Source: Schmidtea polychroa (lineage: Eukaryota). From it: a stretch of DNA of 64,000 nucleotides. The stretch is taken from assembly GCA_044892525.1 (NCBI GenBank), contig CM097885.1, positions 11,782,001 through 11,846,000 of the forward strand, in the 5' to 3' direction. Made by a program: the position numbers and the translations under genes. Positions 3,049 through 60,195 of the stretch are shown one piece after another (the stretch's first letter is position 1; each line of letters begins with the position of its first letter). The notes below the pieces were generated by a model. It was not told where the DNA came from. It searched no databases and was given only the letters and a program-made list of their open reading frames with translations.

Positions 3049-3564
3049 CATTGCGAGTTGTTGAGCGTGACCAGTACCCTTACGAACAGTACCCATAGAG
3101 GGACAGAATATTTTGTCGGATAGACTCGGAGTATATAGATTAATAATAATTATATGACATTGAAAATGGTCTCGGGAAAACGATAATAACTTTGTCAATA
3201 TTAATGATGATGATACCTTCAATAGCTCATTCGAAAGGTCTTGCACTAGGCTTTAAAATGAGCTATCAATCGATAAAATAAAATGATTGGAACGATAAAC
3301 TTTTGGGCAAACGAAAACCAGGACTCCGCTGGACCACTAATAATATTTTGAATAATAATAATAATTTCACTATGAAAATAAGGTGGTCATCATTTGTTAA
3401 TAACTTTACCGATAATAATGATGATGATACCTTCAATAGCTCATTCGAAAGGTCTTGGATTGAGCTTTAAAATGAGCTATCGATGAATAATTTCCGTTGG
3501 CGGGAACTTTGAAAATATTTAAAAATAAAATAATAATATTTTTTAAAAATAATAATATGACCTT

Positions 3565-3746
3565 GATGAGTCATCACGATGAGTCACCACGATGAGTCAC
3601 CACGATGAGTCATCACGATGAGTCACCACGGTGAGTCACCACGGTGAGTCACCACGGTGAGTCGCCACGATGAGTCATCATGATGAGTCATCACGGTGAG
3701 TCACCACGGTGATGCATCACGATGAGTCATCATGATGAGTCATGGT
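3565..3746. repeat. 13-bp tandem array (14 units) of AP-1-like TGAGTCA palindromes
   Basis: Units G[A/G]TGAGTCA[T/C]CA[C/T] read directly; 12 of 14 have a perfect TGAGTCA. Confidence 0.9.
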
Positions 3747-3822
3747 CTTTGTTTAAAAAATTACCCCCCTCCCCGGGGGTGACTCATATGTCTTTGTTCC
3801 CGACTCCACACAATACCCTACT

Positions 3823-19141: not shown

Positions 19142-19957
19142 CTATTTTTCATGAAGTTGTAAATATACATTAACATTTGACTTTAAAAATGGATTAATAA
19201 AAACAAAAAATCCAGAATCTCCTAAAACATTTCGCAGATTAATAATAAATCCTTGATTGTATTTGACAATGCATTTCTTACGTTCATATCGTGTCTGACC
19301 AGAGCGGAATTGAACAATTTGTAACCAAATTATAGACGAGAAAACCACAAAAAAACCAAACCCAACAAATGTCAAAACACCAATGATTGACTGACAAATT
19401 GTCAAACAACCAGTCAATATTAAAAATTGCGGAGCCAAATAGCATCCAATTATTAAGAAATAATTATTGTCAAGAGTTTCAAATACAAATTGTAAATTAT
19501 ACCAATTACAATAAGCCGCTGCAAACCAAACATAGAACAATAAACAAAGAAAATAGCGATAATTTGTCGCCCCAACACAACAGCCGATGAACCAACAATG
19601 ATGATCCCGTCTGATAATACAATTATTGCAAATAGGACACAAATGAGTTCTTGGCAAATGCGGTTTATTACAATTATTGCATGGTTTTGATTGATCTTCG
19701 ATGTTAGTGATGAAGCATTTCATAGAGGAATCAGTTGAAACAGCATAAAAGAAATTTGATAAAACTTGAAACAATATAAATATAGCAAGTGCAATATGTA
19801 TTTCTTTTTGTGTATAATTAAAATAATACAAAATATAAAGCTCATAGCAAAAAGTAAAAGGCACGCCTAAAATTAAACTAGTCATTCCAAAAATATTTTT
19901 GTATGAATTCCGAGTAATAATTTCATTATAGGATCTAGAAAATACAGCAAACTCCAT
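19142..19957 (-). CDS. DHHC palmitoyl-S-acyltransferase (ZDHHC22/24-like), intronless
   Basis: Cys-rich domain CNNC..PRTHLCPICNNCIIRRDHHCWFIGCCVG..NYRYF, flanking TM helices and a GQT.YE motif. Confidence 0.92.
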   Translation of the reverse strand: MEFAVFSRSYNEIITRNSYKNIFGMTSLILGVPFTFCYELYILYYFNYTQKEIHIALAIFILFQVLSNFFYAVSTDSSMKCFITNIEDQSKPCNNCNKPHLPRTHLCPICNNCIIRRDHHCWFIGCCVGATNYRYFLCLLFYVWFAAAYCNWYNLQFVFETLDNNYFLIIGCYLAPQFLILTGCLTICQSIIGVLTFVGFGFFVVFSSIIWLQIVQFRSGQTRYERKKCIVKYNQGFIINLRNVLGDSGFFVFINPFLKSNVNVYLQLHEK

Positions 19958-27280: not shown

Positions 27281-27375
27281 AGTAGTGAGGAATCTATGCA
27301 CCCCAGCACCCCCACCCTCAAAAAAAACATCGCTATTGACCCATATTTTCCACATTTATATGCTTTTTTACCCCA
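27281..27375 (+). repeat. Left terminal inverted repeat
   Basis: Reverse complement of 41613-41708 apart from one substitution and one base in an A-run. Confidence 0.95.
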
Positions 27376-28219
27376 TATTCTTCACTTTTTTACCCCATAT
27401 TCTTCACTTTTTTTAACTTTTAAACTTTGTCCCCTATTGCCATTAACCCTTAATTTCTTCCCTTAAAAGTAAAAAAGTTCGGAATAGATGTATTTATAGA
27501 TTAGTAATTCCGAGAAAAGGTAACGGGGTGCATAGATTCCTCACTACTTGGTCTTAAGGATTTAATGTTATAAGGATTTAATGTTATAAGAATATCAGAT
27601 TACCTAATTCATAATGATCTAGGTCGCCTGATCACCTTAAGGTTTTGAAAGTTTTAAAAATAAAAAATTTTATGAAAATAGTAAAACTGCTCTGAGAGGA
27701 CAGTGGTATTTTTTTTTTTTTTTTTTTTTTTCACTGTCCCCTCAACAGTTTTTTTTGATCCGGATCATTTTTTTTACTTATCAACCTCTTTCGTTTATCG
27801 AATCTCTTCCAATATACAAGCTGGCCAGACTCATACATCAGAATCAATCCGATAATAGCAGCACGCCTTATTATTCGCTTCTCGCTCACGAAGTCGATTT
27901 CAACGGCGTTTTAAGTGTGCTGCTCGAAAGTACAAATGAATTCGAAAGCGAATCCGAAAGAGGTCCGAAAACAACTGAGAAATAAATGTGCACATTACCG
28001 GGATCGATCCGGGGGAGTTCGAAAGACAGGTGGCGATAATTACCGGTTCGCCACCATCACCCGTTTCAATATTTTTTTTTTCATATTTATGTTTAAAAAA
28101 TAATTAATTAATAAAAAAATAAAATAAAATATACAAGTACTTTATAAATATAAGATACCCACACTATTTTCAATATTATTTTCAAATTTTTAATATTATT
28201 TTATGTTGAAAAAAAAACT

Positions 28220-28293
28220 AACCTCAGATGTGATTTGAACCACTATCCATTTGAACCACTGTGCCAGTCTATTCCCACTGCGCCATCAAGGTT
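28220..28293 (-). ncRNA. tRNA-like RNA polymerase III unit 1 (putative)
   Basis: A-box TGGCGCAGTGG (28285-28275), B-box GGTTCAAATC (28241-28232), terminal stem AACCTTG/TGAGGTT, and a T9 terminator at 28217-28209. Confidence 0.6.
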
Positions 28294-28539
28294 TGAATTT
28301 TTGTCATTTTTTAGACTATAAATAATCGATTCAAGTTCTTTAACTCTTTCCTGTAATTGTTTCATTTTCTTCAATCTTATATCAGCAACATCTACAGCCT
28401 TCATATAAAAATGTCGATACTTTTCATTATCTACCATCAACTCTTTGATGTATTCTAATGGTTCTTCTTCTCTTCTTTTCATTCTCTTATGTTTAACTTC
28501 ATTCAATTCATTTCTCATTCTTTCTTTTAACTCATCCAT
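28243..28539 (-). CDS. Small coiled-coil hypothetical protein
   Basis: 98-aa charged helical ORF with the AAAATG start context used by the other viral genes; its 3' end overlaps Pol III unit 1. Confidence 0.6.
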   Translation of the reverse strand: MDELKERMRNELNEVKHKRMKRREEEPLEYIKELMVDNEKYRHFYMKAVDVADIRLKKMKQLQERVKELESIIYSLKNDKNSNLDGAVGIDWHSGSNG

Positions 28540-28706
28540 TTTTATAAATATTTTTTTATTGGATATATTAATTTTTGGTAGTTAAAACGTTTTTGATCTT
28601 AAATTTCCAAGAGTTGCCGTTGACCAATCACCTTAAAAATTTGTAAAAGTACTAAATCGAGTATGCTGATCAATATTTTGTTTAAAAAAAAATATCGAAA
28701 AAAATT

Positions 28707-28779
28707 GACCAAAATCGAAAATTGAACCCGGTACTCCCGGTGATAAAATTGAAGCCTATTCCCACTCCGCTATAATGGC
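28707..28779 (-). ncRNA. tRNA-like RNA polymerase III unit 2 (putative, degenerate)
   Basis: 73 nt: GCCATTA, A-box TAGCGGAGTGG, T-arm CCGGGTTCAATT, 3' TTTTGGTC, then a T7 run. Shares AGTGGGAATAG with unit 1. Confidence 0.55.
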
Positions 28780-28837
28780 TTACATAATATATTTAATTAA
28801 TCCTATTGTGTGTGTGTGTAAATTTTAATATATAAAA

Positions 28838-30130
28838 ATGAATAACATAAATCTTAAAATTCAAGAAAAAAATAAATTAAATCTTGATTATAATAAAGAA
28901 TTTACTCATGAAATTAAAAAAAATGATATTTTAAAAATCTCTCCAACTTCAGGATCTATTGCAAACTTAAATCGTAGGGGTGATATAGTTTTTCAATCTC
29001 TTCAAACATCAAACCCTATAGATATTTGTAATGCCAAATTATATTATAAAATCGAATTAGAAATTGAAACAAACAAAGATATAACCCTAGAAAATAATTT
29101 CTTTCCAAATTTATTCTCCAACATGAGATTAAAACTAGGATCATCAGAAATTGAAACTGTTTTGCATCCGGGAGTATATTCTACAATGTTAAATTTTATT
29201 TTGACTGGTTGTGATTATAAAAACGAATATGGTGAATTAACAGGTTGGATTCCTGATGTTAATAAAGGGGATTTAGATAAAGATGGTTTAGATGTAAACC
29301 ATGGTTACCATAAAAGAGCTGAACTTTATAAATCTAAAAAATTTGAAGGTTATTTTGAATTAAAACACTTGTTTGGATTCCTTCAAAACTATAATCGTAT
29401 ACTTCATAATGTTTTTATAGAATTCATCTGTAATAGAGTAGAAGGTGATAAAAGATTGTTCTATGGAGCTGTAGATACAAAAGCTAAATTAAAATTATCA
29501 ACACTTGAATTACATATACCTGAATGGACAATAAACCCACATTCTGAGATTAAACTCCTTGAAAGATTAAATTCCAACAAGTCTATAAATGTAAATTATT
29601 TAAATAGAATCTGTAGTGAATTTAGTATGACAGAGGGTTCAACATATTCTATAAAGGTAGCAAATTTAGCATACCGACCAAGATATATCTTGATTGGATT
29701 CAAAGAAGTAGATTCATCTTTCCAAAAAAATAACAACTTGTTTATTCAAAAGATTGGAGTTGATAATTTAAAAACAATCCAAATTCAATTAAATAGTTCT
29801 TATTATCCAATAAATAGAATGGAATTTAATATTGAAAATAATGAAAACATATTCCCATATCTAAATTATATTGAAACATGTTATGATTTCAAAGTTGAAC
29901 CGCAATTAAGTTTAGAAGATTTCAAAAATTTATATTCTATATTTTGTATAAATGTTTCAGACCAAGATGATCGCCTAGCCATAAATAATGTTGATGTTAC
30001 ACTTCATGTAACAAAGGATTCTAATTTTAAAGCTAAAGTATATACATTAATATTAGAAGAAAAGAAAATAGAAATGAAATTATATGGTGGAAAGATTTCA
30101 ATAATCGAAAATGTTAGGGGAGATTCTTAA
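28838..30130 (+). CDS. Major capsid protein (double jelly-roll, Polinton PY/adintovirus hexon)
   Basis: 430 aa, beta-rich, with ENNFFPNLFS.MRL.LG..EIE...PG..ST, GWIPD, RPRYILIGF and IQLNSSYYP motifs typical of Polinton MCPs; gene context supports this. Confidence 0.85.
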   Translation: MNNINLKIQEKNKLNLDYNKEFTHEIKKNDILKISPTSGSIANLNRRGDIVFQSLQTSNPIDICNAKLYYKIELEIETNKDITLENNFFPNLFSNMRLKLGSSEIETVLHPGVYSTMLNFILTGCDYKNEYGELTGWIPDVNKGDLDKDGLDVNHGYHKRAELYKSKKFEGYFELKHLFGFLQNYNRILHNVFIEFICNRVEGDKRLFYGAVDTKAKLKLSTLELHIPEWTINPHSEIKLLERLNSNKSINVNYLNRICSEFSMTEGSTYSIKVANLAYRPRYILIGFKEVDSSFQKNNNLFIQKIGVDNLKTIQIQLNSSYYPINRMEFNIENNENIFPYLNYIETCYDFKVEPQLSLEDFKNLYSIFCINVSDQDDRLAINNVDVTLHVTKDSNFKAKVYTLILEEKKIEMKLYGGKISIIENVRGDS

Positions 30131-30147
30131 TATTTTAACATTTTAAA

Positions 30148-31557
30148 ATGTCTTTAAATAAATATTGGAGATGTGAAACTTGTAATTGTCAAGTTACAAG
30201 ACATCATAAAGCAAGCCATCTTAAAACTAAAAAACATACAGTAGGTGACCTAATTCCACGAGCTGGAGGCGATTTGCAATCTTCAAAAACAACATCTTCA
30301 ATATTAAAACCTTTTACTACAGAAAAATATCCAGGTGAAAGACATTTATTTAAACACAACTATACTGGACCAGGAACAAGATTAGATATTAGATTAGATG
30401 AAAATAATAATCCCAAACAAGTAGAAGAACCAATAAATAGAATTGATCAAGCAGCTTTAAAACATGACATTGCATACAATTCAACAAATCTTAGAGATAG
30501 ACATGTTGCAGATGTGAATTTAATACATGATTTAAATAGTATCCAAAATCCATCAACCCAAGAAAAGATTCAAAGAGCTCTAGTTAAATTAGCAATGAAA
30601 GGTAAGATTTTCATAGGCTTAGGACACAGTCCGATCACCATGGGTGCAAGACTTCCTAGAATAGCAAAAGATGTTGCTTATAAAAAGATTATCGAACAAG
30701 CAGAGATTGAAAGATCCCTCGAGAGTACAGCCAAGACTAGTTTACAAACCCCAACAGAATCAGAAATAAAATATGCAAAGGAATTACACCATGAATTTAG
30801 AAAAAATAAAAAATATTTAAAAGTTCAAGTACATGAAAAAGATCAAACATGGTCTGCAGATTTAGTCTTTATGCCCAAATCATCAGACCCTGAAAAATAT
30901 AAAATAATTTTAACTGTAATAGATTTATATACAAGATTTGCTTTTGCAAGATGTTTAGAAAATAAAACAGGATATTCTATTACAGAAGCATTTGAAAATA
31001 TATTTGAAGAAAATCAAAGAATCCCAAAATATTTATGGTGTGATAAAGGAACAGAATTTTATAACAAAGTTTTTACAAAGTTTTTAAATGAAAATGATAT
31101 AAAATTATATTCAACAGAAAACGAAGGAAAAGCAGTCGTAGTTGAAAGATTAAATAGAACATTAAAAAATAAAATGTGGAAATATTTTACTGCTATTGGA
31201 AAACAAAAATGGAACAATGAATTGTTACAAAAGATTGTAAATGAATATAATAATGATGTACATAGTTCTATAAAATTAACACCTTTAAATGCTTCCATGA
31301 AGCCTGAAACCATTAAAGTGGTAAATATTGAAAATGATGTTATTGAAAAACCAAAGTTTAAAATTGGTGACCGAGTAAGAATATTTAAATATAAAAATAA
31401 ATTTGAAAAAGGATTCACAGCAAAATGGACAAATGAAATTTTTATTATAAATAAAATACATTATACAACTCCAATAACATATAGCATCATTGATTTAAAT
31501 AATGAAAAAATATTAGGTAGATTTTATAATAATGAACTACAGAAAACAGATTTTTAA
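30148..31557 (+). CDS. Retroviral-type (rve) integrase with N-terminal zinc finger and parvovirus-like PLA2 domain
   Basis: CxxC..HLKTKKH; HNYTGPGT...PINRIDQAALKHDIAY; DDE core WSADL / WCDKGTEF / VERLNRTLK; C-terminal KFKIGDRVRI..FEKG...W..E.F. Confidence 0.93.
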   Translation: MSLNKYWRCETCNCQVTRHHKASHLKTKKHTVGDLIPRAGGDLQSSKTTSSILKPFTTEKYPGERHLFKHNYTGPGTRLDIRLDENNNPKQVEEPINRIDQAALKHDIAYNSTNLRDRHVADVNLIHDLNSIQNPSTQEKIQRALVKLAMKGKIFIGLGHSPITMGARLPRIAKDVAYKKIIEQAEIERSLESTAKTSLQTPTESEIKYAKELHHEFRKNKKYLKVQVHEKDQTWSADLVFMPKSSDPEKYKIILTVIDLYTRFAFARCLENKTGYSITEAFENIFEENQRIPKYLWCDKGTEFYNKVFTKFLNENDIKLYSTENEGKAVVVERLNRTLKNKMWKYFTAIGKQKWNNELLQKIVNEYNNDVHSSIKLTPLNASMKPETIKVVNIENDVIEKPKFKIGDRVRIFKYKNKFEKGFTAKWTNEIFIINKIHYTTPITYSIIDLNNEKILGRFYNNELQKTDF

Positions 31558-31568
31558 GTCGACAAGCC

Positions 31569-32360
31569 CTAAAACAAACTTTTCCATATTTCAGCTTCTT
31601 CTCTATCCAAATAAATATAATTATATTTTTCTTTCCAATGATTATCAACAAACATATCAAACATATTCTTATCAGGTTCAACATTTGAAAATAAATCATT
31701 ATAAATCATATTCTTATCACGGCGATCTAATTTAAAAAATATAAAACAATTGGAATTATTTCTTATTGAATTTTTATCTAAAGCATAATATGTTTGAGAT
31801 ATATAAATAACATTACAATTATTATGTCGACCTCGTGTAAAGTAACTCTTTTGAATCTCTTGATTTTTCATATTAACAACATCATCAAATATAACTAGAT
31901 TCTTTTTATCTTTAGGAAGTAAATCACAATGTAAAACATCTTCAGGTTTATTAGAGAATAAAACTTGAATTGCCTCCTGCCCTTCTTCACAAATATAATC
32001 ATTTTTATTACTAATATCTGATTCTAAAATCTTTTCCTTATACCAATCAACCATATCACAAGGTTGAAAAACTTCTTCAGGACACCTATGTTGATTTTTA
32101 AAAATATCAATTATTGCTTTTTTAGTTAATTTATTTTCAAATCCACATTTCAAAAGTTGTAATTCTGGTTGATTTATGGTTGTAGAATAAAAGATTAAAT
32201 TATTATAATCTAAAAAATCATCTTCAAGTAACATTCTCAAAACAAGTACATTCTTTCCACATCCAGAAGAACCAACAATTAATAATCTAAAATTATCAGG
32301 AAATACTTTATTATTAAATTTACTCTTATGTCTATTTAAAATTGGTTTCCAAATATCCAT
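31569..32360 (-). CDS. A32/FtsK-like genome-packaging ATPase
   Basis: Walker A GSSGCGKN, Walker B LVIFDD, TRGRH..NVIYISQ and IRNN. Start placed at the AAAATG at 32360. Confidence 0.92.
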   Translation of the reverse strand: MDIWKPILNRHKSKFNNKVFPDNFRLLIVGSSGCGKNVLVLRMLLEDDFLDYNNLIFYSTTINQPELQLLKCGFENKLTKKAIIDIFKNQHRCPEEVFQPCDMVDWYKEKILESDISNKNDYICEEGQEAIQVLFSNKPEDVLHCDLLPKDKKNLVIFDDVVNMKNQEIQKSYFTRGRHNNCNVIYISQTYYALDKNSIRNNSNCFIFFKLDRRDKNMIYNDLFSNVEPDKNMFDMFVDNHWKEKYNYIYLDREEAEIWKSLF

Positions 32361-32375
32361 TTTGTTTATTATAAA

Positions 32376-32954
32376 ATGACAACTGAAGAATCTTTGCAAG
32401 AATTAATAAATTCAAATAAAAATAAATCAGTAGTAATTGATGGTAAAAAATATTTTATTGGAAAACATGTAAAAGAACAAGTGAGAGCGAAGATCCACGA
32501 AGCTAAAGAAGGTGGCATTCTTCCATTAGCTGCTTTAATACCTGCAATCATTGCTGGTTTATCAGGTGCTGCTGGAATAGCTGGAGGAATTGCAACTACA
32601 GTTCAAAAAGCTAAAGAATCTCAAAAGACAGACCTAGAAAAAGAAAAACTACAAACTGAAATCGATTCAATGAAGAAGGTAGAGCAAGCTAAAGGGGGAG
32701 TGTCCGTTGGAAAGGGTTTCTATCTTAATCCATATGAGGGGAGTCGGCAAAAGTCTCAGGGCAAAGGTCTCTATCTTGATCCTTATAAAGGTAGAGGTTT
32801 AAATGATTTTTTAAAAAATCAAATTTCTACATCTGAATCTTTATCTTCAAAAGATAAAGAAGATTTTAAAAAAATATGTAAATCTTTAAAGAATGGATGC
32901 CTTTGTAAAACTAAAAATGGTAAAGGATTATACTTGAAGCCCTTCGAACTATGA
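32376..32954 (+). CDS. Core/membrane-active protein resembling adenovirus pX
   Basis: GGILPLAALIPAIIAGLSGAAGIAGG resembles adenovirus pX GGILPLLIPLIAAAIGA; three GKG[F/L]YL.P repeats follow. Confidence 0.75.
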   Translation: MTTEESLQELINSNKNKSVVIDGKKYFIGKHVKEQVRAKIHEAKEGGILPLAALIPAIIAGLSGAAGIAGGIATTVQKAKESQKTDLEKEKLQTEIDSMKKVEQAKGGVSVGKGFYLNPYEGSRQKSQGKGLYLDPYKGRGLNDFLKNQISTSESLSSKDKEDFKKICKSLKNGCLCKTKNGKGLYLKPFEL

Positions 32955-32976
32955 TACCATTTTTGATACCATTAAA

Positions 32977-33858
32977 ATGGTATATGAAGAAAGATTAGCA
33001 CTTTTAAAAAAATTACAATCAGAACAAGATAAATATAATAAAAAAGATACAACTCAACATGCTGAATCTATAATATTAAATGAGGTAATAACACAACAAC
33101 AGGGGCCAACAATTAAAGCTATAAAAGAGTTGGAAGATTTCAATGAGCAAGCAAAATTTAAAGAGTTAGAAGATAAAAAACAAAAAATAAAAGAACTAGA
33201 GTGGCAGGATAAAGAAAAAGAATCCAGTGAAAACCATCCTGAAAGAAATCAAAGAAAACGCAGAAGGATTTCTAATGTGGAAGAAGAAGAAATGTTTTTA
33301 AAAACAAAACCTCTTAAAGTTGATCCTAAAATTAGAGATGATTTACCTCCTTCAATTAGACCCACATTTAATACTAATACTGAAGGATATCAAATAATAA
33401 CAATTAATAAACAAAACTTTACTTTATATTCAAATTCAGAAAATAAATCACGTATTCATTCACAAAATGTTTATAATAATGAATATTTAGACTTTGAATT
33501 TACAGATGATTTTTATAGATTACTTTGTGGATATTCTTCAGATGATGTTGAAGAAATTAAAAAATATTTAAATTTAATAAGATTAATAAGAGCTAGTTCT
33601 AAAGCAAAATATATTCAAGATTTAAAGAATTATTTAAATAAAAATGAAAAGGGTTATGTTGTTACAGAGGGAGAGGGATTAATTAGTGAAGGTGGTAAAC
33701 CAAATCCCATCAATCTTTTTATTGAATTAAGAAAACTATTAGCTGCAAGGAAAGCAGGACATAATAATTTAGATTCTGATATTTTAAAGATTTCTAAAGA
33801 TTTGTTAAAACAAGGAATAATTTCAAAAGATAAATTTAATAAGTATACGAAGTTATAA
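32977..33858 (+). CDS. Conserved Polinton/adintovirus protein of unknown function
   Basis: 293 aa; C-terminal G.G...L..LLAA.KAG.N....I..I...L...GII motif that I recognise from Polinton structural gene blocks. Confidence 0.7.
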   Translation: MVYEERLALLKKLQSEQDKYNKKDTTQHAESIILNEVITQQQGPTIKAIKELEDFNEQAKFKELEDKKQKIKELEWQDKEKESSENHPERNQRKRRRISNVEEEEMFLKTKPLKVDPKIRDDLPPSIRPTFNTNTEGYQIITINKQNFTLYSNSENKSRIHSQNVYNNEYLDFEFTDDFYRLLCGYSSDDVEEIKKYLNLIRLIRASSKAKYIQDLKNYLNKNEKGYVVTEGEGLISEGGKPNPINLFIELRKLLAARKAGHNNLDSDILKISKDLLKQGIISKDKFNKYTKL

Positions 33859-33880
33859 ATACGAAGTTTTAAAATACAAA

Positions 33881-34345
33881 ATGACTCCTTCAATATTAGA
33901 TTTTTTAAAAACATTTGGAATAAATGCAAAAACAAATTTTGATTTAAAAGATTATGCAAATTATTTAAATTTAAAAATTAAAATATTAATGAATGATGAA
34001 TTATCAAGTCTGGAGAGTCCCCTGAATATAATAATCAATTATCAAAATTCAAATGAAAAAGGATCTCATTGGGTTTGTATATATAAGAAATCTATCTACT
34101 TTGATTCTTTTGGGATTAAACCTACTAAAGAAGTTGAAGATTATCTCTTGAGGGGTTCTCCGATTGATTCCCCAAATGGTTATACTTTTAACTCTTTACA
34201 AGTTCAACCTTTGAATACTAAAATATGTGGTATTTTAAGTTTATATGTTTTGTATAGATTGAATAAGGGAGAGGGAAAGGGGCATACGCAGGATTTTGAA
34301 TCTATAATTCAAGAAATTTATAATGATCTAGAATCTCTACTATAA
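33881..34345 (+). CDS. Adenain-like cysteine protease
   Basis: IIN...GSHWV, YFDSFG and VQ....ICG provide the His/Asp/Gln/Cys catalytic set. Confidence 0.92.
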   Translation: MTPSILDFLKTFGINAKTNFDLKDYANYLNLKIKILMNDELSSLESPLNIIINYQNSNEKGSHWVCIYKKSIYFDSFGIKPTKEVEDYLLRGSPIDSPNGYTFNSLQVQPLNTKICGILSLYVLYRLNKGEGKGHTQDFESIIQEIYNDLESLL

Positions 34346-34393
34346 GGATTTTTACTATAAGGATTTTTACTATATGAATTTACTACTAAAGAA

Positions 34394-35158
34394 ATGGAGC
34401 TTCACAACCCTCCGGAAGATAATTTTAAAAAAATGGTAAACATAATGTCAGATAAATATTCAAGAACTTTATCTATAAATTCAAAAGAATCAGAGTTTAC
34501 TATAAACTTTCAAGATTCAATTAAATTAGATCAAAATTTAAATTATGAATTGGGGCTATTATGGTTTTGTGCTTATAATACTATTTTTAATATAACTAAA
34601 GATAATAATAAATTTACTATTCAAACTCGTGATGGGCATAAACCAGAAATTATAACAATAGAACCTGGGGTATATGAGATAAAAGATTTAAATGATATAC
34701 TTTCTAAAAAAACAAATGAAGGTATTAAAATTAAAATGGATATACCAACTTCAAAATGTGTAATGACTTTGAAGAATATAAAAATTAGTTTTTTAGATAA
34801 TTGTTTCTTTCACACAGTTTTAGGATTTAAACCTATGGATATAACAATAAAAGAAGATAAAATAATAACATCAGAACATATTATAAAAATAATAAATACA
34901 AACACAATAAATATTCATTGCGATTGTATAACAGGTTCTTATAATAATGGTAAACAAACAAATGTTTTATATTCCTTTCCCTCAAACACAGTTCCTATGG
35001 GATATAAAATAGTTGAAAGAATGAATCCTCCAAATTATTTACCTTTATGTAGAAAATATATAATGGATATTAATTTTAAAATTCTTAATCAAGAAGGAGA
35101 ATTGATTGATTTTAATGGAGAAGAGATTTCAATGTATTTACATTTGAAACAGGTTTAA
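34394..35158 (+). CDS. Minor capsid protein (penton, single jelly-roll)
   Basis: YELGL, NTIFNI..NNKF, I.PG.YEI, INIHCD.I.GSY.NG, P.GYKI.E....P.Y.P and NQ.GELIDFNGE motifs. Confidence 0.88.
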   Translation: MELHNPPEDNFKKMVNIMSDKYSRTLSINSKESEFTINFQDSIKLDQNLNYELGLLWFCAYNTIFNITKDNNKFTIQTRDGHKPEIITIEPGVYEIKDLNDILSKKTNEGIKIKMDIPTSKCVMTLKNIKISFLDNCFFHTVLGFKPMDITIKEDKIITSEHIIKIINTNTINIHCDCITGSYNNGKQTNVLYSFPSNTVPMGYKIVERMNPPNYLPLCRKYIMDINFKILNQEGELIDFNGEEISMYLHLKQV

Positions 35159-35184
35159 CGAAGTCCATTTTAAATTATTAATAA

Positions 35185-36195
35185 ATGAGTTCTTATATTC
35201 CATGTAATAGAGGTGGTGGAACAATAAAAACAGGGTTTAATACAGAAGAAATATTAACTTTAACAGAAAATAAATATATTAATGAAAGAGGTGATTCAAT
35301 GAAGGGTGATTTAATTTTAAATGGACACAAAATAAAAGAATTATCTTTTCCAACTGATGAAGCTGATGCAGTTAATAAGAAATATGTAGATGGTGTTAAA
35401 AAATATACTGATTTAACAACAACAAGAATTGAAAGTTCATTAACAACAAAAATTGATTCAATGGAATCAAAGCTTAATAATATCGAACAACGATTTAATG
35501 ATAAATTTGACAAGTTACAAAGTCTGTTAACTGAACAAGTTGTAAAGTTAAATACTGCTATATTAAATTCTAAAGATAAACAAATTATGAATACTAAATT
35601 TAATACAATATATAAAATAATAAATGAGATGATTACATCATTTAATAAAAGAATTTCAAATTTAGAGTCTCATGGAACACACATTAACACCACACATAGT
35701 ATTAGAAAAAGAGCTGCTGAATTAGAACAGAATAAAACATTATTACCCCATACATATAAACATTTTATAGAACCAAGTTTAATAACAACAAACAGTAAAG
35801 AATGGGGTGTTTTTATGGTTGTAAAAATTATTGATCCTTATTTCTTTTTGTTTGATGATGATAATGAAAGAATGAAATGGTTTGTGAAATGTGATTATAA
35901 TAGTAAGCTTGAAAAGGGTGATGTTATAATGACTAGTTATGATTTACCACACGGAGATTGGTATGTTAATACTCATTCACATGGACTACATAAAGTTAAA
36001 AGTAAGAATATTCATTTTTCTAGTTCACTTGTACAATATATAGATTTAATATTTTATGAAAAAAAGGTTGATGTTGATGAAGTTCGTAAAGCATTGAGAG
36101 AATTGTATAAAGGTATCCTCTCAACAAGAGTTTCTTTTGATATCCGAGTATTGGTGCCAGATGGTGCTCAGAAGAATAAAGTCTTATTTTTTTAA
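35185..36195 (+). CDS. Putative fibre/spike-like protein
   Basis: GDSMKGDLILNGHKIKELSFPTDEADAVNKKYVD (trimeric fibre/adhesin neck-type repeat), then a long coiled coil and a globular C-terminus; lies directly after the penton gene. Confidence 0.6.
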   Translation: MSSYIPCNRGGGTIKTGFNTEEILTLTENKYINERGDSMKGDLILNGHKIKELSFPTDEADAVNKKYVDGVKKYTDLTTTRIESSLTTKIDSMESKLNNIEQRFNDKFDKLQSLLTEQVVKLNTAILNSKDKQIMNTKFNTIYKIINEMITSFNKRISNLESHGTHINTTHSIRKRAAELEQNKTLLPHTYKHFIEPSLITTNSKEWGVFMVVKIIDPYFFLFDDDNERMKWFVKCDYNSKLEKGDVIMTSYDLPHGDWYVNTHSHGLHKVKSKNIHFSSSLVQYIDLIFYEKKVDVDEVRKALRELYKGILSTRVSFDIRVLVPDGAQKNKVLFF

Positions 36196-36203
36196 TTATT
36201 AAA

Positions 36204-36815
36204 ATGGAAGAAGTAAGAGAAGAAAATATTTACCCAGAATTGAGATCATCAGGATATTATTCCGAAGGTCACAAAGGTTCCAAGGCCTCAGCTCCCACAG
36301 AACTTGAAATTATGAGAGTAAAAGAATTTAAATCAGAAACCTTACATTTAAAAGATTTATTAAAGCATTATAAAAAAATTAAAAATAGATGGAATAAAGG
36401 GAATACAGTTTTAAAAGTTATAGGTTATTCTTTAGGATTTGCATCTGCAATATTAACTGTTATTTTACCCATAACTTTACCAGTTGTTACTCTTGCACCT
36501 GTAATACTTGGAAGTATTTCTGTGGCTGATGGTTTCTTAACTGAAATAGTTTCATTATCTTATACTTCTAAAAAGAAAAGTTTATATAGAGAAGTTTGTT
36601 TATCAATAGAATTAGGAATCTCTAAATTATTTTTATTTCAATTAAAAGCTTTGGAAGATGGAATCCTGACAGACGAAGAAATAATGAAATCAAATCAAAT
36701 AATACAAGATATAAAGAATGAGGTTATAAGATTAAAAAGGGAGGGCATGGTGGCTAATGTTATAAGTAATAAAAAAACATCTCGAGAAAAATGGTTAAAG
36801 AATTCTTACTTATAA
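36204..36815 (+). CDS. Putative membrane protein with a hydrophobic hairpin
   Basis: IYPEL..SAP N-terminus, coiled coil, long hydrophobic segment and ALEDG.LTDEE motif. Confidence 0.7.
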   Translation: MEEVREENIYPELRSSGYYSEGHKGSKASAPTELEIMRVKEFKSETLHLKDLLKHYKKIKNRWNKGNTVLKVIGYSLGFASAILTVILPITLPVVTLAPVILGSISVADGFLTEIVSLSYTSKKKSLYREVCLSIELGISKLFLFQLKALEDGILTDEEIMKSNQIIQDIKNEVIRLKREGMVANVISNKKTSREKWLKNSYL

Positions 36816-36893
36816 AATGGGTGTATTTTTAAAAAAGTAGATCAGGTTGCTATAGTTGCTTAAATTAATTGTCGACATTTTATTATTAAAAAA

Positions 36894-37448
36894 TTAAATA
36901 TCGTTGAAAGCCAACCTATGAATCATTAATTTATGATCTTTAAATTCTTTATCACTTAGACCTTTTATATATTCAGGATCAGTATTAAAATATTTAAGTT
37001 CTAAACATATAGGATTAAAAACTTGAGAATATAAAGGTTTCTCGATTTCTCTCTGGGGATAAATAATTTCAACATTATAAATATCAAGATCAGTAATCTT
37101 TGTATCATATAACTTATTCAACTTTTCTAGATTTTTTATTATAGGGATTAAATTATTTCCAATAGGTAGAGTTGTCTTTAAATCACTTAGTATGAATCTC
37201 TTATCATCATAATTTGATAATGATACTTTTTGAGATTCTATCAAGTGAATATCATGGTTTTCACTTTTAAGTTGATGTATTTCATCAATTTTATCTTTAT
37301 GATTTGGGTTTAATGTATCTATATAATCTTGATGAGAAAGATTCTTTGCAACCACTCTCTGTATTCCTTTACATCTGTTATCCTTTAAATTAGTAATATT
37401 TTTTATAATTTCAAAAATGTTATTTTCTTGATTTTTAGTTTCCATCAT
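36894..37448 (-). CDS. Stand-alone paralogue of the pPolB C-terminal (thumb/tail) region
   Basis: Aligns by eye with the last ~165 aa of the adjacent PolB (KGIQ, NYDDKRFILSDLKTTLPIGN.LIPIIKNL, ELKYFNTDPEYI.GL). Has its own TATAAAATG start and stop. Confidence 0.8.
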   Translation of the reverse strand: MMETKNQENNIFEIIKNITNLKDNRCKGIQRVVAKNLSHQDYIDTLNPNHKDKIDEIHQLKSENHDIHLIESQKVSLSNYDDKRFILSDLKTTLPIGNNLIPIIKNLEKLNKLYDTKITDLDIYNVEIIYPQREIEKPLYSQVFNPICLELKYFNTDPEYIKGLSDKEFKDHKLMIHRLAFNDI

Positions 37449-37472
37449 TTTATAGTGTTAAAATTCTAATTC

Positions 37473-40400
37473 TTAGACCAGTCGTAATTGATTTATAATT
37501 ATTTCTGCGGTAATGCTTTTTAACATTAATTTATGTGATTTAAAGTCTTCTGGTGTTAGTCCTTGGATATATTCAGGATCAGTATTAAAATATTTAAGTT
37601 CTATAGGTTTTATATTTTGAACTTGATTATATAAAGGTTTAGGAATTAATATTTCAGGATATTGGATTTCTACTTTAGCAAGTTGAAGGTCTGTAATCTC
37701 TAGGTTATAAATTTCATTTATTTTATCAAGATTTTTTATTATAGGGATTAAATCATTTCCAATAGGTAATGTTGTCTTCAAGTCAGAAAGTATAAATCTT
37801 TTATCATCATAATTTGTTATAGCAATCTTGTTACACTCTTCAAGATATATATTATGTTTCTCTGATTTAAGATGATGGGTTTTAGCAATTTTATTTTTAT
37901 AATTTATATTTAATGAATCTTTATACTCTTGATGTGTGAAGGTTTTTGACACTGATTTTTGAATTCCTTTACTTTTATTTTCTTTATAGCTTTTCGGGTT
38001 TTCAGGGAATGAAGGATATTCAAATGTTCGATCTACTTCAACAGATCCTTCTATTATAAATTTTATTGTATGCTCTTTCATAATTGGTTTGTCTTTCATT
38101 TCAAGAGAATATTGTTTAGGTCTAATAAACACTCCTCCAGTTATTGGAGTATTTGGTTTTTCATCTTTAAAAGTAAACAACTCTCCAGAATTGTTTATTA
38201 ATTTATTTAAGGTTGGATCTTCACGTATTTCTTTTTTTAAATCTTTGCTATATCCTTTTAAAAACATACTATCAGTGTCCATTGCATGCATGGATATTCG
38301 ATCTCCAAAATGTGGTACTAGAACATCATAGTAGGCTTCATACATTTGAAGCTTTGAAAGTTCTAAAATTGAAAACCCTATAAAGATTGGTTTATTATAA
38401 GTTTTTACAGAGTTTTTAATCTCTATGGCTATAAGGTTACTAGAGAATATCTCGGCATTTTTAAATGTGGGCTTTCCAATTATCCGGTTGTACCTATTAA
38501 GGTCTTTGGATGTATTGGTCAAAAGCTCTACACGTGTGTACTTGTCTATATTCTCCATGGTCTTTCCAAAGACCGCATTGTTCAGGAGTTTGTAAATCAT
38601 ATCAAGAAATGCATTTCCAGCTCTCTTTGCTGCATTTCTTTTCAAAATATTTCCCTCTATGAATTTTTTCATAAAAGGGGCTTGTCGAAATTTAATAATG
38701 GAATGTACTTTTTTTAAAACCATTCCATGGGAGAGATAAAACTGAAAGAGTCTATAATGACAAAGGTAATCAGTTTTATCGGTCTGATCGCATAAAAGTT
38801 TTATACAGGGCGATCTATCCTGAGCCATCTGCCAGTCTGAAAGTTCTTCAGTCGAGATCTTTCTTCTTACTGGAGCAAATGGAAAGAATCTTGTCCTGGA
38901 TTTTATTTCATTGGGATATTCAAGATCGCATTCTATGACATATCCATATTGTGAATTCTTTGGTGTTTTTAGAATTTCTTGTATTAATTCCTCAGTGGGC
39001 TCTTCCCAGGTGAACTTGCCAATTGGAAGGTATTGAGTCATTACTCCTGCATATAAAGCTGTTGCATCTATATACATTATTTCAGAAGGATTAGAAAGAC
39101 CTTCCAGTATTTCCTCACGATCTTCTGGGTTTGTTATTTCTACATATAGAGCATCAGTATCTTTGAAAAATTTAGGATAAAGAGTTGTAAAATTATTAGC
39201 ATTTATTTCTCTATTCCCTTGTACTGAAGAAATACCTCCTCTAATATTATGTTTATATACATTAAACATATCAAGGTCAACTAATAATTCAATGGTTTTA
39301 TTTCTTTCTGCTATGTCTTCATCGGTCCATATGCTATATAATAATATATCCCAAGCTAGAGAGGGAGCGGTTATATAATTATAAGGTTTTAATTCAAAAG
39401 CTTTTGAAAATGTCTCGAAGCAATCAGCTAAGATATAAACATCTAAGGAAAGATACATGTCAGTATATTCTCCAAGGTTTCTACAGTTGAAAAGATTCCA
39501 CATTTTAAGTGCACGGGAATATTCCTGATCAGAAATCCCTGATTGTGTTAAAACAGAAAAGAAATCTTCTTGAGCTGGGAGTAATTCATTATATTTTTCA
39601 AAGGAGTCTATATAATCATATGGATAGATTCCTTTTGCTAGACAGGTATTATATTCCTCTAATGGAATATTGTTTTTTAATAACACATGTTCTTTTGTAT
39701 ATTTAAAATCCTCAGGGTTCATAGTTTTTGCAATGCCATCCAAAGACATCCCTAAGAAATTTAAGGAGTCCAAAAACTTAAAGCATCCATATTGAATGCT
39801 TTTATATTTTTCTTTTGTAAGTCCAATAACCTTGAAAGAGTTTTTAGCATTTGCAGCTAGATGTTTAATGAACAGGTGAATATCATAGCCAAAAAGATTG
39901 TGAAATATAAATGGTATGTGTGTTGGTTTTTTACAATTGAGATTACAATTTTTATGGGCCGCTCCTCTGTAATTATTTTCTATTTTAAAATGATCATGGT
40001 CAGGAACCTTTAGTTCACTAGTTGACTCCTCATCCTCAAACTCTTGTTTGCACATCCAGCAGTGTGTTGCATTTTTATATTCTTCCTCTTGTTCTTCTGA
40101 AAAATTCATAGGAAAGTTGGATTTTAATATATAATTCATGTTCTAGATTATTTAAAGTTTCAACAAAATGGTCTAGAGTCTCTTTGTCAGAAGTTCCCCT
40201 AAATGAATATTCTCTAGATTCTACAAGTTCTGGATAATTACTTTTGAAAAACATTTTATAAGCAGAGGGTAATTGTTTTGTTAGTTTTACAGTAGTAGTT
40301 TTTGTTCGTCTTAGTTTTACATTTATAGCTTCAAAATCACAATAAACCACTCCCAATGCTTCTAATAGATTGGAATAGTTTTTAAACCTCATATTAGCAT

Positions 40401-41609
40401 TTTTCTTGTGTGGCATTTTTATTAAAGCAGGTTGATTCTTACAACAGAGTCTCTCATGTTTAATAGCAGCAAGTTTTGAAGTTGAATGATATAAACATCT
40501 TTTACAACATATGCCTCCACGAATGAGTGTGTTTCCTTTCATAAAACTTTGAAAATTCTTTATTAAGATATAATGAAGTTTTTTATCTAACATAGTGCCT
40601 CCGGACGCAGTGCTTTCTGCTTCTGGTTCTAATGAAATGCCTTCTTCTGCTTCCATAACCTTCGGGTGAATACTTTGAACCTCTTCACCATATTCTTCTC
40701 CATCAAACTCTTCGTCTGCTTTACCTTCTTCTAATATTAAAAGATCTACTTCTCTCTTTTCATCTGAGATTTCCATATTAGAAATGTAAATAGGAATAAT
40801 TTGTTTATAATTTTTATTTTTTCTAGTTTTTGTAATTTTGGTTGGAATGAATTGATAAATATTAATTTTAAGATTATTTAATTTTTCAAATGCTGGAACA
40901 TCTTCAATTTTCATTGGGTGGGAAAAATCTTTTGGATATATTAATTCAGATTCATATTCTTCATATTTTTGAACTCTCTGTGGGTTAGTTGCTTGAGGAT
41001 GTAAGTGTGCAAGTATTGACCATTGAAAACATTTATTATCTTTATTCTGTACATTTATAACATGGTTGGAGGTGAATGGTGTATGAATAAAAGATTTAGG
41101 ATTTGGTGGTGCACCTCTCCAGTATTCAATCTCTATGTTTTGAAAAGAGTGGAATCTTAAATTAGATTCTCCTAGTTCTTGTTCCACCTGTTCTTGTTTT
41201 TCTTCCAATTCTTTAGCTATATCATTAACAAGTTTATTTCCTGCTTTTGTAGAAAATAAATATTTATATGAGGTTTCAATTTTTACATCTAGAGGCATTG
41301 CGATCGAATCATCTCCTCTCCAGTATTTTGCATTTCCTGTAAATTTAATTTTTATAACATTAAATCTTGATCTACCAAATTTTTTTATAGCATCATCCAT
41401 TGATGATATTATTTTTTTTTATTTTCTCTTATATATTGCATGATTGATCTGGGTCCTCGTTTTACTTCTGCAATTACATCGGTGTGATTGAAGTCATCCC
41501 AATTAAACTCTAGTTTTTCAGCTTTTTCAGTCATTGAGTTTGAATCAGAATCTTTTGCTTCAAGACCACAATCTTCTATGTGTCTTAAGTAAAAAGATTT
41601 TATCCTCAT
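37473..41609 (-). pseudogene. polB: Protein-primed DNA polymerase B split into three ORFs by two frameshifts
   Basis: ORFs 41409-41609, 40075-41400 (QNKDNKCFQW...HY, YCDFEA) and 37473-40139 (DHDH, FHNL.GYD, KGIYPY, YIDATALY, KLLNNAVFGK, MDTDS, DDKR). Confidence 0.9.
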
Positions 41610-41612
41610 CTT

Positions 41613-41708
41613 TGGGGTAAAAAAGCATATAAATGTGGAAAATATGGGTCAATAGCGCTGTTTTTTTTTGAGGGTGGGGGTGCTGGGGTGCATAGATTCC
41701 TCACTACT
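41613..41708 (-). repeat. Right terminal inverted repeat
   Basis: Ends ...GGGGTGCATAGATTCCTCACTACT. Confidence 0.95.
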
Positions 41709-43634: not shown

Positions 43635-44742
43635 ATGGATCAAAATTTAAATTTAACAAAATTTATAAAGAGCCCTGCTACACGCTTATTTTTACTCGGA
43701 GGAGGTCTTATATATGGCATGAGCAAGTCTTTTTATACAGGTAAACTTGATTATCATTTTAATTTAATAACCTACTTGTGTAGTTGATGGTGGTCAAAGA
43801 AGTATTATTTTTAGTAGATTTGGAGGTATTAAAGAAAATATTTATGCTGAAGGACTTCATTTTAGGTTTATAATTTAATGTTGTTATTTAGTTATTATTT
43901 TATATAGAATTCCTGGTATACAATATCCCATTATTTTTGATGTTAGATCTCGTCCTAGAATTGTTTCTTCACCAACTGGTAGTAAAGGTAAGTAGTAAAT
44001 ATAACTTGAAACATCTTATTATGGTTATTATGGATCACAGATTTGCAAATGGTGAATATTTCTTTAAGAGTTTTAAGCAGACCAGATATGACTAAAATTC
44101 CCGATATATATCGAAATATTGGTGAAGACTATGATGAACGAGTGTTACCTTCAATAGCAAATGAGGTTCTGAAAGCTGTTGTTGCAAAATTCAATGCTGG
44201 TCAGTTAATAACTCAAAGAGAACAAGTGTCTTTGTTAATTCGAAAGCTTCTAATAGATCGAGCAAAAGATTTTAACATAATTGTCGATGATGTTTCGATT
44301 ACGGATTTATCATTTTCCAGACAATATAGTGAAGCAGTCGAACGGAAACAAGTATGACAAATTGGGAATATGTTTTGAGTGAGATATAAAAACCACTAGA
44401 TTTCACAACAAGAAGCTCAGCGGGCTCAATTTACTGTAATGCGAGCAAAACAAGAGCGACAGCAAAAAATTGTCAATGCTGAAGGAGAAGCGCAAGCTGC
44501 AGTGTTGATTGGGGACGCGTTGACACAGAGTTCTGGTTATTTGAAATTGCGTAAAATCAAGGCAGCCGAAAAGATCGCGCGAACAGTACAGATAAAATTG
44601 TTTAGAAATTTTATTGATTTTCTCTTTCCAGTTGTCGACTTCTCAAAATAAGGCTTATTTGAATGCAAATACTCTGATGCTGAATTTGAATGAGAAGAGT
44701 TTCAATGAAAGCGTGGAACACATAGGCAAACGATCCAAGTAA
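43635..44742 (+). CDS. PHB2: Prohibitin-2, 6 exons
   Basis: Exons 43635-43740, 43784-43865, 43908-43987, 44041-44351, 44400-44585 and 44632-44742 join in frame (introns 43, 42, 53, 48, 46 nt). Motifs [46 protein letters not shown] and QQEAQRAQF. Confidence 0.95.
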
Positions 44743-59589: not shown

Positions 59590-60195
59590 TGACTCATCAA
59601 GGTCATTGAAACAAAGACCATGACTCATAGTATGACTCATCAAAATTCTCAAGGTCATTTAAACAAAGACCATGACTCATCCTATGACTCGTCAAGGTCA
59701 TTTTCAAGGTCGTATGACTCATAATATGACTCATCAAGGTCAAAAAATTTTTTTCAAGGTCATTTAAACGAAGACCATGGCTCATCAAGGTCATTTTCAA
59801 GGTCAAATGAGTCATACTATGACTCATATGACCTTGAAAATTTTTTTCAAGGTCACCTGACTCATCCTGTGACTCATCAAGGTCATTTTCAAGGTCATAT
59901 GCGTCATAGTATGAGGCATATGCCCTTGAAAAAATTTTCTCAAGGTCAAATGACTCATACTATGACTCATATGACCTTGAAAAAAATTTCTCAAGGTCAT
60001 ATGACTCATACTATGACTCATCGACATTTTTTCAAGGTCATATGACTCATACCATGACTCATCAAAAATTTTCAAGGTCATTTTCAAGGTCATCTGAGTC
60101 ATCCTATGACTCATCAAGGTCATTTTCAAGGTCGCATGACTCATCCAAGGTCATTCCAAGGTCATATGAGTCATCGCGATGACTCATCAAGGTCA
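59590..60195. promoter_or_regulatory. Dense array of TGA[C/G]TCA (AP-1-like) and YCAAGGTCA (NR5A/ERR-like) motifs
   Basis: About 20 of each motif by hand count in about 600 bp; function is inferred. Confidence 0.6.

Follow-up and report, generated by a model that had tools for sequence, protein, structure and literature searches.

Why would the integrase of a virus-like element be made as one protein with a phospholipase A2 (PLA2)? The question is raised by an open reading frame (ORF) at positions 30148–31557 (+) of a 64,000-nucleotide stretch of Schmidtea polychroa DNA (contig CM097885.1; hereafter the window), which a preliminary description had read as a zinc finger, a parvovirus-like PLA2 and a DDE integrase in one continuous frame, possibly separated by the element's own adenain.

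Architecture of the fused protein

The ORF starts with ATG and continues in a single frame for 469 amino acids, and both enzyme domains lie within it above their Pfam cut-offs (Phospholip_A2_4, PF08398, residues 66–147, 36.8 bits against a cut-off of 23.9; rve, PF00665, residues 229–321, 46.1 bits against 32.6), which upholds the continuous zinc finger–PLA2–integrase frame claimed earlier. The PLA2 domain (residues 42–159; 30271–30624, +) is of the parvovirus type and contains in translation everything previously attributed to it, i.e. the calcium loop Y72TGPG76 (30361–30375), the catalytic HD (30463–30468) within H106-D107-x-x-Y110, and the ending MKGKIFIGLG (residues 150–159); with D122, the signature of such enzymes (YxGxG loop, HDxxY and a downstream Asp) is complete. 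Two glycine motifs flank the domain as candidate protease sites, G40-G41 ahead of D42 (30265–30270, +) and G157-L-G159 between PLA2 and integrase (30616–30624, +). A variable linker (30625–30768, +), 3 to >70 residues long in homologues, leads into the retroviral-type integrase (30769–31554, +) with D238, D299 and E333. No match to the Chromo profile was found in the protein, the C-terminus of which lies four residues past a conserved ELQ, and the missing chromodomain is a trait of the clade. The earlier reading of a complete DDE integrase without chromodomain is therefore right as to triad and chromodomain, but 'complete' can refer to the core and C-terminal domain only, because the retroviral HHCC domain is absent as read from the sequence.

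The finger (C9-x2-C12-x11-H24-x5-H30; 30172–30237, +) is of the C2H2 type by translation and is modelled as two strands and a helix. Its Cys and His residues are present as described, but it gave no Pfam match and recurs in only 12 of the best 120 homologues (see below), nine of the 120 having a DUF5679-type C4 module instead; weak zf-U1 matches (E 5e-4 to 8e-4, below cut-off) were obtained in three of nine homologues scanned and not in the 469-residue protein. The finger is thus optional in the family and, most homologues having neither finger nor C4 module, was rejected as a core component. Another Polinton ORF (L003:176–634) matches the 469-residue protein at 48% over 25 amino acids and possibly carries the same finger.

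An alignment-based AlphaFold model of the whole protein (86 sequences; mean pLDDT 85, pTM 0.57) shows the domains as separate, confidently modelled units, and confidence is low only at residues 1–3, 33–49 and 159–169; pLDDT is below 50 in the latter two stretches, pointing to disorder at or just after both glycine motifs. Folded without an alignment, the N-terminal 161 residues reached a pLDDT of 36. The C-terminal part matched the foamy-virus (PFV) integrase (Foldseek E 1e-15; VIA-align Z 21.4, rmsd 4.6, 248 aligned), and residues 42–172 matched the rice PLA2 2wg7 with a middling score (Z 6.7, rmsd 4.4, 101 aligned). A sequence search of the PDB with the PLA2 part and with the element's protease returned nothing significant.

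Integrity of the junction

A 641-nucleotide contig from run X2, a run that is only partly independent because the study code is shared, spans 30580–31220 with three differences and no gap. No frame-changing indel is listed at 30620–30790 in four runs; run X8 has no coverage of the junction, and run X5 contains two deletion joints of low depth that span the linker. Two sister proteins likewise keep the frame (P0149 and, at 88% identity, P0001), with no stop or frameshift between the domains, so that both the reads and the sister copies bear out the fusion as first described. An assembly artefact or one-off read-through is ruled out by the X2 contig, the homologues and these in-frame sister proteins. 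The window's own junction contains no frameshift signal in 162 nucleotides, its linker having neither an A6 run nor an in-phase slippery heptamer, and this copy is a fixed in-frame form. M165, an in-frame ATG in strong context, was considered as an internal integrase start and rejected, as it is not conserved in P0001.

The host element

Maverick/Polinton elements have terminal inverted repeats with AG...CT ends and are flanked by a 6-bp target-site duplication. The fused ORF lies in a 14.4-kb element (27281–41708) delimited by inverted termini that start AGTAGT (27281–27375 and 41613–41708, AG...CT ends present), and the contigs of run X6 that cover the flanks stop at 27281 on the left and resume at 41708 on the right. 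This element is a Maverick/Polinton (adintovirus), because it combines such termini and the rve integrase with a double jelly-roll capsid gene (28838–30130, +; PF21738, E 2e-25), an A32-type packaging ATPase (31569–32360, −; PF04665, E 1e-8), an adenain-like cysteine protease (33881–34345, +) and a protein-primed DNA polymerase B (PolB; 37473–41400, −; PF03175 on 37473–40139, E 4e-14). The protease contains the H, D, Q and C motifs and matches P0411, a protein that passes PF00770, at 41% over 119 amino acids (E 3e-18); it does not itself match that profile. ORF 34394–35158 has no Pfam match and is named penton by analogy, at 31–33% to same-sized ORFs of related elements. Also without a Pfam match above cut-off are a 293-residue protein with one G-x-G motif (32977–33858, +), a coiled-coil-like protein of 336 residues (35185–36195, +) and a hydrophobic one of 203 residues (36204–36815, +).

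The 6-mers flanking the element differ, i.e. a target-site duplication is absent, which concerns this copy and not the family because the copy looks recombinant. The PolB gene is split into two frames near 40075–40139, a 184-residue ORF (36894–37448, −) duplicates the PolB C-terminus at 59% identity, and the summed contig depth of run X6, which is not a copy number, falls at about 37.5 kb. The duplicated PolB C-terminus, the missing duplication of the target site and the drop in depth suggest a recombinant with a polymerase arm from another family; since PolB also lies in two frames, the copy is probably not autonomous. The 24-nucleotide terminal tip has an internal inverted copy at 27526–27549, 245 nucleotides inside the left end.

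Elsewhere in the window, a second protein-primed PolB ORF (159–2312, +; 717 residues, PF03175, E 4e-29) probably represents a further Maverick, truncated where the window begins. Arrays of GATGAGTCA/TGACTCAT units at 3534–3767 (with a 13-nucleotide period) and 59597–60175 are possibly sub-terminal repeats of other elements, and an ORF of 605 residues (61918–63735, −) has no Pfam match. The genes flanking the element are eukaryotic, comprising a DHHC palmitoyltransferase (19142–19957, −) and a Band 7/prohibitin-like gene (44049–44651, +).

Distribution and origin of the fusion

A search with the full-length protein gave 578 matches among 7240 candidates. PLA2 is fused to the integrase in 116 of the best 120 of these, a list biased towards fusions because the query is itself fused; the remaining four are short at the N-terminus. 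The rarity implied by the preliminary description is contradicted by this count and by the name 'PLA2-Integrase' in a published supplement (see below); it had itself stated that a common and already described fusion would count against its reading, and the fusion is indeed common, its prior description consisting of that label. The PLA2 catalytic residues are conserved in these sequences, which are related and not independent events (H106, 113/113; D107, 112/113; Y110, 114/114; D122, 114/114), and those of the integrase are nearly invariant too. With the integrase alone as query there were 16,853 matches; among the best 150 distant representatives PLA2 was present in 13, so fusion is not required, most of these integrases being unfused. 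In a FastTree of 263 integrase domains, the clade of the window protein has 98 members (92 fused, six unfused or truncated; support 0.99); several further clades contain fusions too, the deep branches of this tree being weak. The PLA2–integrase fusion is a clade-wide, conserved and common trait.

The adintovirus protein PLA2X usually begins with a PLA2 domain, followed by G-x-G, then a basic stretch and finally a pX-like tail. ORF 32376–32954 (+) resembles that tail alone, without PLA2: it is 30% identical over 94 amino acids to the C-terminal half of a stand-alone PLA2X in L071 (E 4e-7), carries seven GG or G-x-G motifs and has a weak Adeno_PX match (E 0.07), so the other half of PLA2X survives as a separate ORF. 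The simplest account of these layouts would be a break of PLA2X at its G-x-G, after which the PLA2 half was joined to the integrase.

Glycine motifs and protease–integrase fusions

Adenovirus protease cuts at (M/I/L)XGG/X or (M/I/L)XGX/G, P4 being relaxed in some cases (PMC4246237, the portion consulted). At the corresponding junction of the fused homologues, Gly occupies P2 in 116 of 116 and P1' in 94, and in 103/116 the P2 Gly is paired with another at P1 or P1'. P1 is Gly in 9/22 sequences in which P1' is not, vs 5/94 of the others (p 7e-5, not corrected for relatedness), an exchange that, judged from the alignment, is the two-pattern behaviour of adenain sites. The adenovirus rule for P4 does not hold, because M/I/L occurs there in only 9/116 and Lys in 71/116 (Phe in the window protein). 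Upstream of the PLA2 domain, GG or G-x-G lies no more than six residues before the position of D42 in 73 of 83 homologues. Among nine PLA2-bearing representatives, four have no G-x-G in the 30 residues closest to the integrase, and their linkers are longer. Within the window's element, a motif scan placed clusters of GG/G-x-G in the 469-residue protein and the core-like ORFs; the capsid, ATPase and penton-like proteins have none.

At PLA2 junctions the G-x-G could be merely inherited, because unfused PLA2X proteins also end their PLA2 domain with it. A second type of fusion bears on this point: an adenain-like protease precedes the integrase in 117 of the best 120 matches, all of them close relatives of one query, and G-x-G is present in the linker of 110 of these 117 vs 16 of 954 windows taken within the integrase itself. 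A G-x-G tail is absent from all 22 stand-alone proteases, although many of them simply end earlier. The motif therefore follows the boundary before the integrase and not the PLA2 fold, being present in protease–integrase linkers and absent from stand-alone protease tails. Protease–integrase fusions occupy three positions in the integrase tree, and no label for them was found in the legible parts of the PMC11071296 supplement files. Members of the adenain–integrase(–chromodomain) family include L004:2740–4251, L034 and L052 among the loci and P0229, P0240, P0194 and P0341–P0459 among the proteins; they have intact protease motifs and a G-x-G-hydrophobic boundary.

The polyprotein with an adenain site at G-x-G that had been proposed thus gains from the invariant P2 Gly, the protease–integrase linkers and the modelled disorder, and loses in its P4. 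The latter would fit better with a protein that stays whole, in which PLA2 and finger would serve as a module for targeting membranes or nucleic acids, taking the integrase through endosomal or nuclear membranes and replacing the missing chromodomain. Linkers of only three residues in many homologues and the lack of a chromodomain throughout the main fused clade agree with such a module. However, a chromodomain is kept in some fusions (P0087, P0108 and P0198), G-x-G marks protease–integrase boundaries where there is no PLA2, and the short proteins P0121 and P0122 end at or just after G-x-G, as a predicted cut product would; a permanently whole protein is in our view distinctly unlikely.

Relatives with a frame change at the junction

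The arrangement of the two genes was followed in 97 loci gathered by integrase patterns, 17 viral and 80 metagenomic (the best 80 of 364 confirmed); a single-protein scan of the viral contigs matched nothing, whereas an alignment scan did match. PLA2 is in frame with the integrase in nine loci, immediately upstream without sharing an ORF in 18, and elsewhere in six, while three loci have the protease fusion; the rest comprise 54 with no PLA2 seen, many of them short or distant, and seven without an integrase start. The 18 upstream cases divide into 15 at −1, two at +1 and one with a stop inside PLA2, so that, where PLA2 lies immediately ahead of the integrase (27 loci), nine junctions are in frame and 17 change frame. 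An A6+ run is present in the linker of 17/17 shifted loci vs 0/9 in-frame ones, and an in-phase slippery heptamer (X XXY YYZ) in the tail of the PLA2 frame in 13/17, the canonical one being absent in four. No ATG precedes the conserved integrase start in 15/17 shifted loci, the first one lying past that start and mostly past the first catalytic Asp; an own ATG is present in 6/6 loci with PLA2 elsewhere. The A7–A8 junctions, from their sequence, may reflect ribosomal or polymerase slippage.

Frame changes at A-runs could also be decay or sequencing slips, the in-frame form alone being functional. Three of the 18 integrases are visibly decayed and 15 whole, in a ranking on integrase match that favoured intact ones, and the stop inside PLA2, the two +1 shifts and the four junctions without canonical heptamer point the same way. 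So does the tree, in which a single clade (support 0.98) mixes shifted and in-frame forms and three further shifted loci fall outside it (L042, L050, L051, L060 and L070 were omitted as broken). Against damage of this kind, none of the 17 A-run linkers is in frame and none of the nine in-frame linkers has an A-run; 15 A6+ runs inside 14 intact integrases carry no frame break, and the PLA2 domains contain none in 5.3 kb. Exact A6 runs stand in slip phase in 5/7 junction cases vs 1/17 inside integrases, and the integrases share only 48–80% identity with one another. L029 and L045 combine A AAA AAC with a 9–12 bp hairpin 5–7 nucleotides downstream (z about −3), although a strong hairpin followed the heptamer in only two of ten loci tested (hairpins only), and the mean z of −0.8 is weak beside controls of −0.5 to +0.3. 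For these relatives, to which alone it applies, we regard decay or sequencing error as unlikely.

Programmed junctions would also affect annotation. In the published annotation of Adinto13074, PLA2X ends just past G-x-G and the integrase is given, shortened, from a Met beyond the first catalytic Asp. If the −1 junctions are indeed programmed, many 'truncated' Maverick integrase annotations would be unrecognised recoding products.

A probable packaged and cleaved precursor

Since the fusion is widespread and relatives join the same genes across a slippery frame change, the integrase is likely loaded as a protease-cut precursor. In the reading that we consider probable on balance, the integrase would be made as the C-terminal part of the 469-residue finger–PLA2 precursor, which would be packaged into the particle through its core-protein part and cut, gag-pol-like, by the element's adenain-like protease at G40-G41 and G157-x-G159, flanking PLA2. 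Once released, the PLA2 would aid membrane escape during entry, and the integrase would accompany the incoming genome for its insertion. Relatives may reach the same end by other routes: PLA2 and integrase could be encoded in different frames and joined by a −1 slip at the A-run, which would make integrase rarer than PLA2, or the protease itself could be fused to the integrase via G-x-G. Packaging, cleavage, entry roles and frameshifting are all predicted here from sequence comparison.

Alternatively, fusion might do no more than co-express two neighbouring genes and set their ratio, the protein being cut in the cell and the integrase left unpackaged. Adjacent separate PLA2 and integrase genes, each with its own ATG, exist in L003 and L027, as do separate neighbouring genes in BK012049 (PMC11071296 supplement, legible part), and most related integrases are unfused. 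Yet the partners chosen, PLA2 and protease, are presumed virion-core proteins, and adenovirus protease works on precursors within the particle (PMC4246237, as far as consulted), which makes mere co-expression quite improbable beside the packaged precursor.

We give an even chance to the wider proposition that a broad group of Mavericks converged on a gag-pol strategy, with the integrase carried on PLA2 or protease, in frame or by programmed −1 slip, and freed at G-x-G. How a Maverick integrase is delivered to the incoming genome is not established in the literature examined, and fusion with protease release offers a testable answer. It would also supply a first candidate recognition motif for Polinton proteases, i.e. 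Gly at P2 within G-G or G-x-G and no adenovirus-type P4.

Comparison with known systems

The bare fusion in the window is only modestly new, because it is common and already labelled; the newer part lies in the frame-changed junctions of relatives and the protease–integrase fusions. The supplement protein file of Buck et al. (2024; PMC11071296), as far as legible, labels 'PLA2-Integrase' in BK066759 (Adinto15303) and BK066529 (Adinto6405), and the consulted main text contains no discussion of that label or of a frameshift or cleavage at the junction, proposing frameshifts for Penton and Hexon-Adenain only and describing a C-terminal chromodomain on the adintovirus integrase. PLA2X is a separate gene in the consulted parts of Starrett et al. 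(2021; PMC8502044), where its status as a virion protein is itself inferred, and the same gene is the separate 'CAP' of Geisler (2018; PMC5803895, part consulted). We found no mention of the fusion in the accessible portions of Yutin (2013), Krupovic (2024), Stephens (2024), PMC12567637 and two preprints of 2026, nor is 'PLA2-integrase' found in the main texts searched, the large supplements of PMC8502044 and PMC11071296 being only partly legible; a literature search on mavirus packaging returned nothing. Within the sources consulted, therefore, the in-frame fusion has been labelled, and its meaning, the frameshift and the protease-fused counterparts were not found described.

Adinto15303 and Adinto6405 share with the window ORF an in-frame PLA2–integrase and a G-x-G before an ELH motif but lack the N-terminal finger. 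Adintovirus PLA2X resembles the window PLA2 in being of parvovirus type, with intact catalytic motifs and an ending K-x-x-x-G-x-G; it is, however, a separate gene with a pX-like C-terminus, whereas in the window PLA2 sits on the integrase and the X half has an ORF of its own. Adenovirus core precursors, as described in the consulted part of PMC4246237, likewise have G-G or G-x-G around the predicted cut by AVP. They differ in having M/I/L at P4, where the fusion homologues mostly have Lys, and in having no integrase.

A parallel in logic is the retroviral Gag-Pol, in which a particle protein precedes the integrase, read in frame or through a slip of the ribosome, and a viral protease releases the parts. 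The Maverick fusions resemble it in a presumed particle protein N-terminal to the integrase, in frame or, in the relatives, likely joined by a −1 slip at A AAA AAC-type heptamers, and in a release likely made by the viral protease. Unlike a retrovirus, the window element belongs to dsDNA viruses with a jelly-roll capsid and a cysteine protease and has no reverse transcriptase, and the N-terminal partner of the integrase in Mavericks is, unlike that in Gag-Pol, a PLA2 or the protease.
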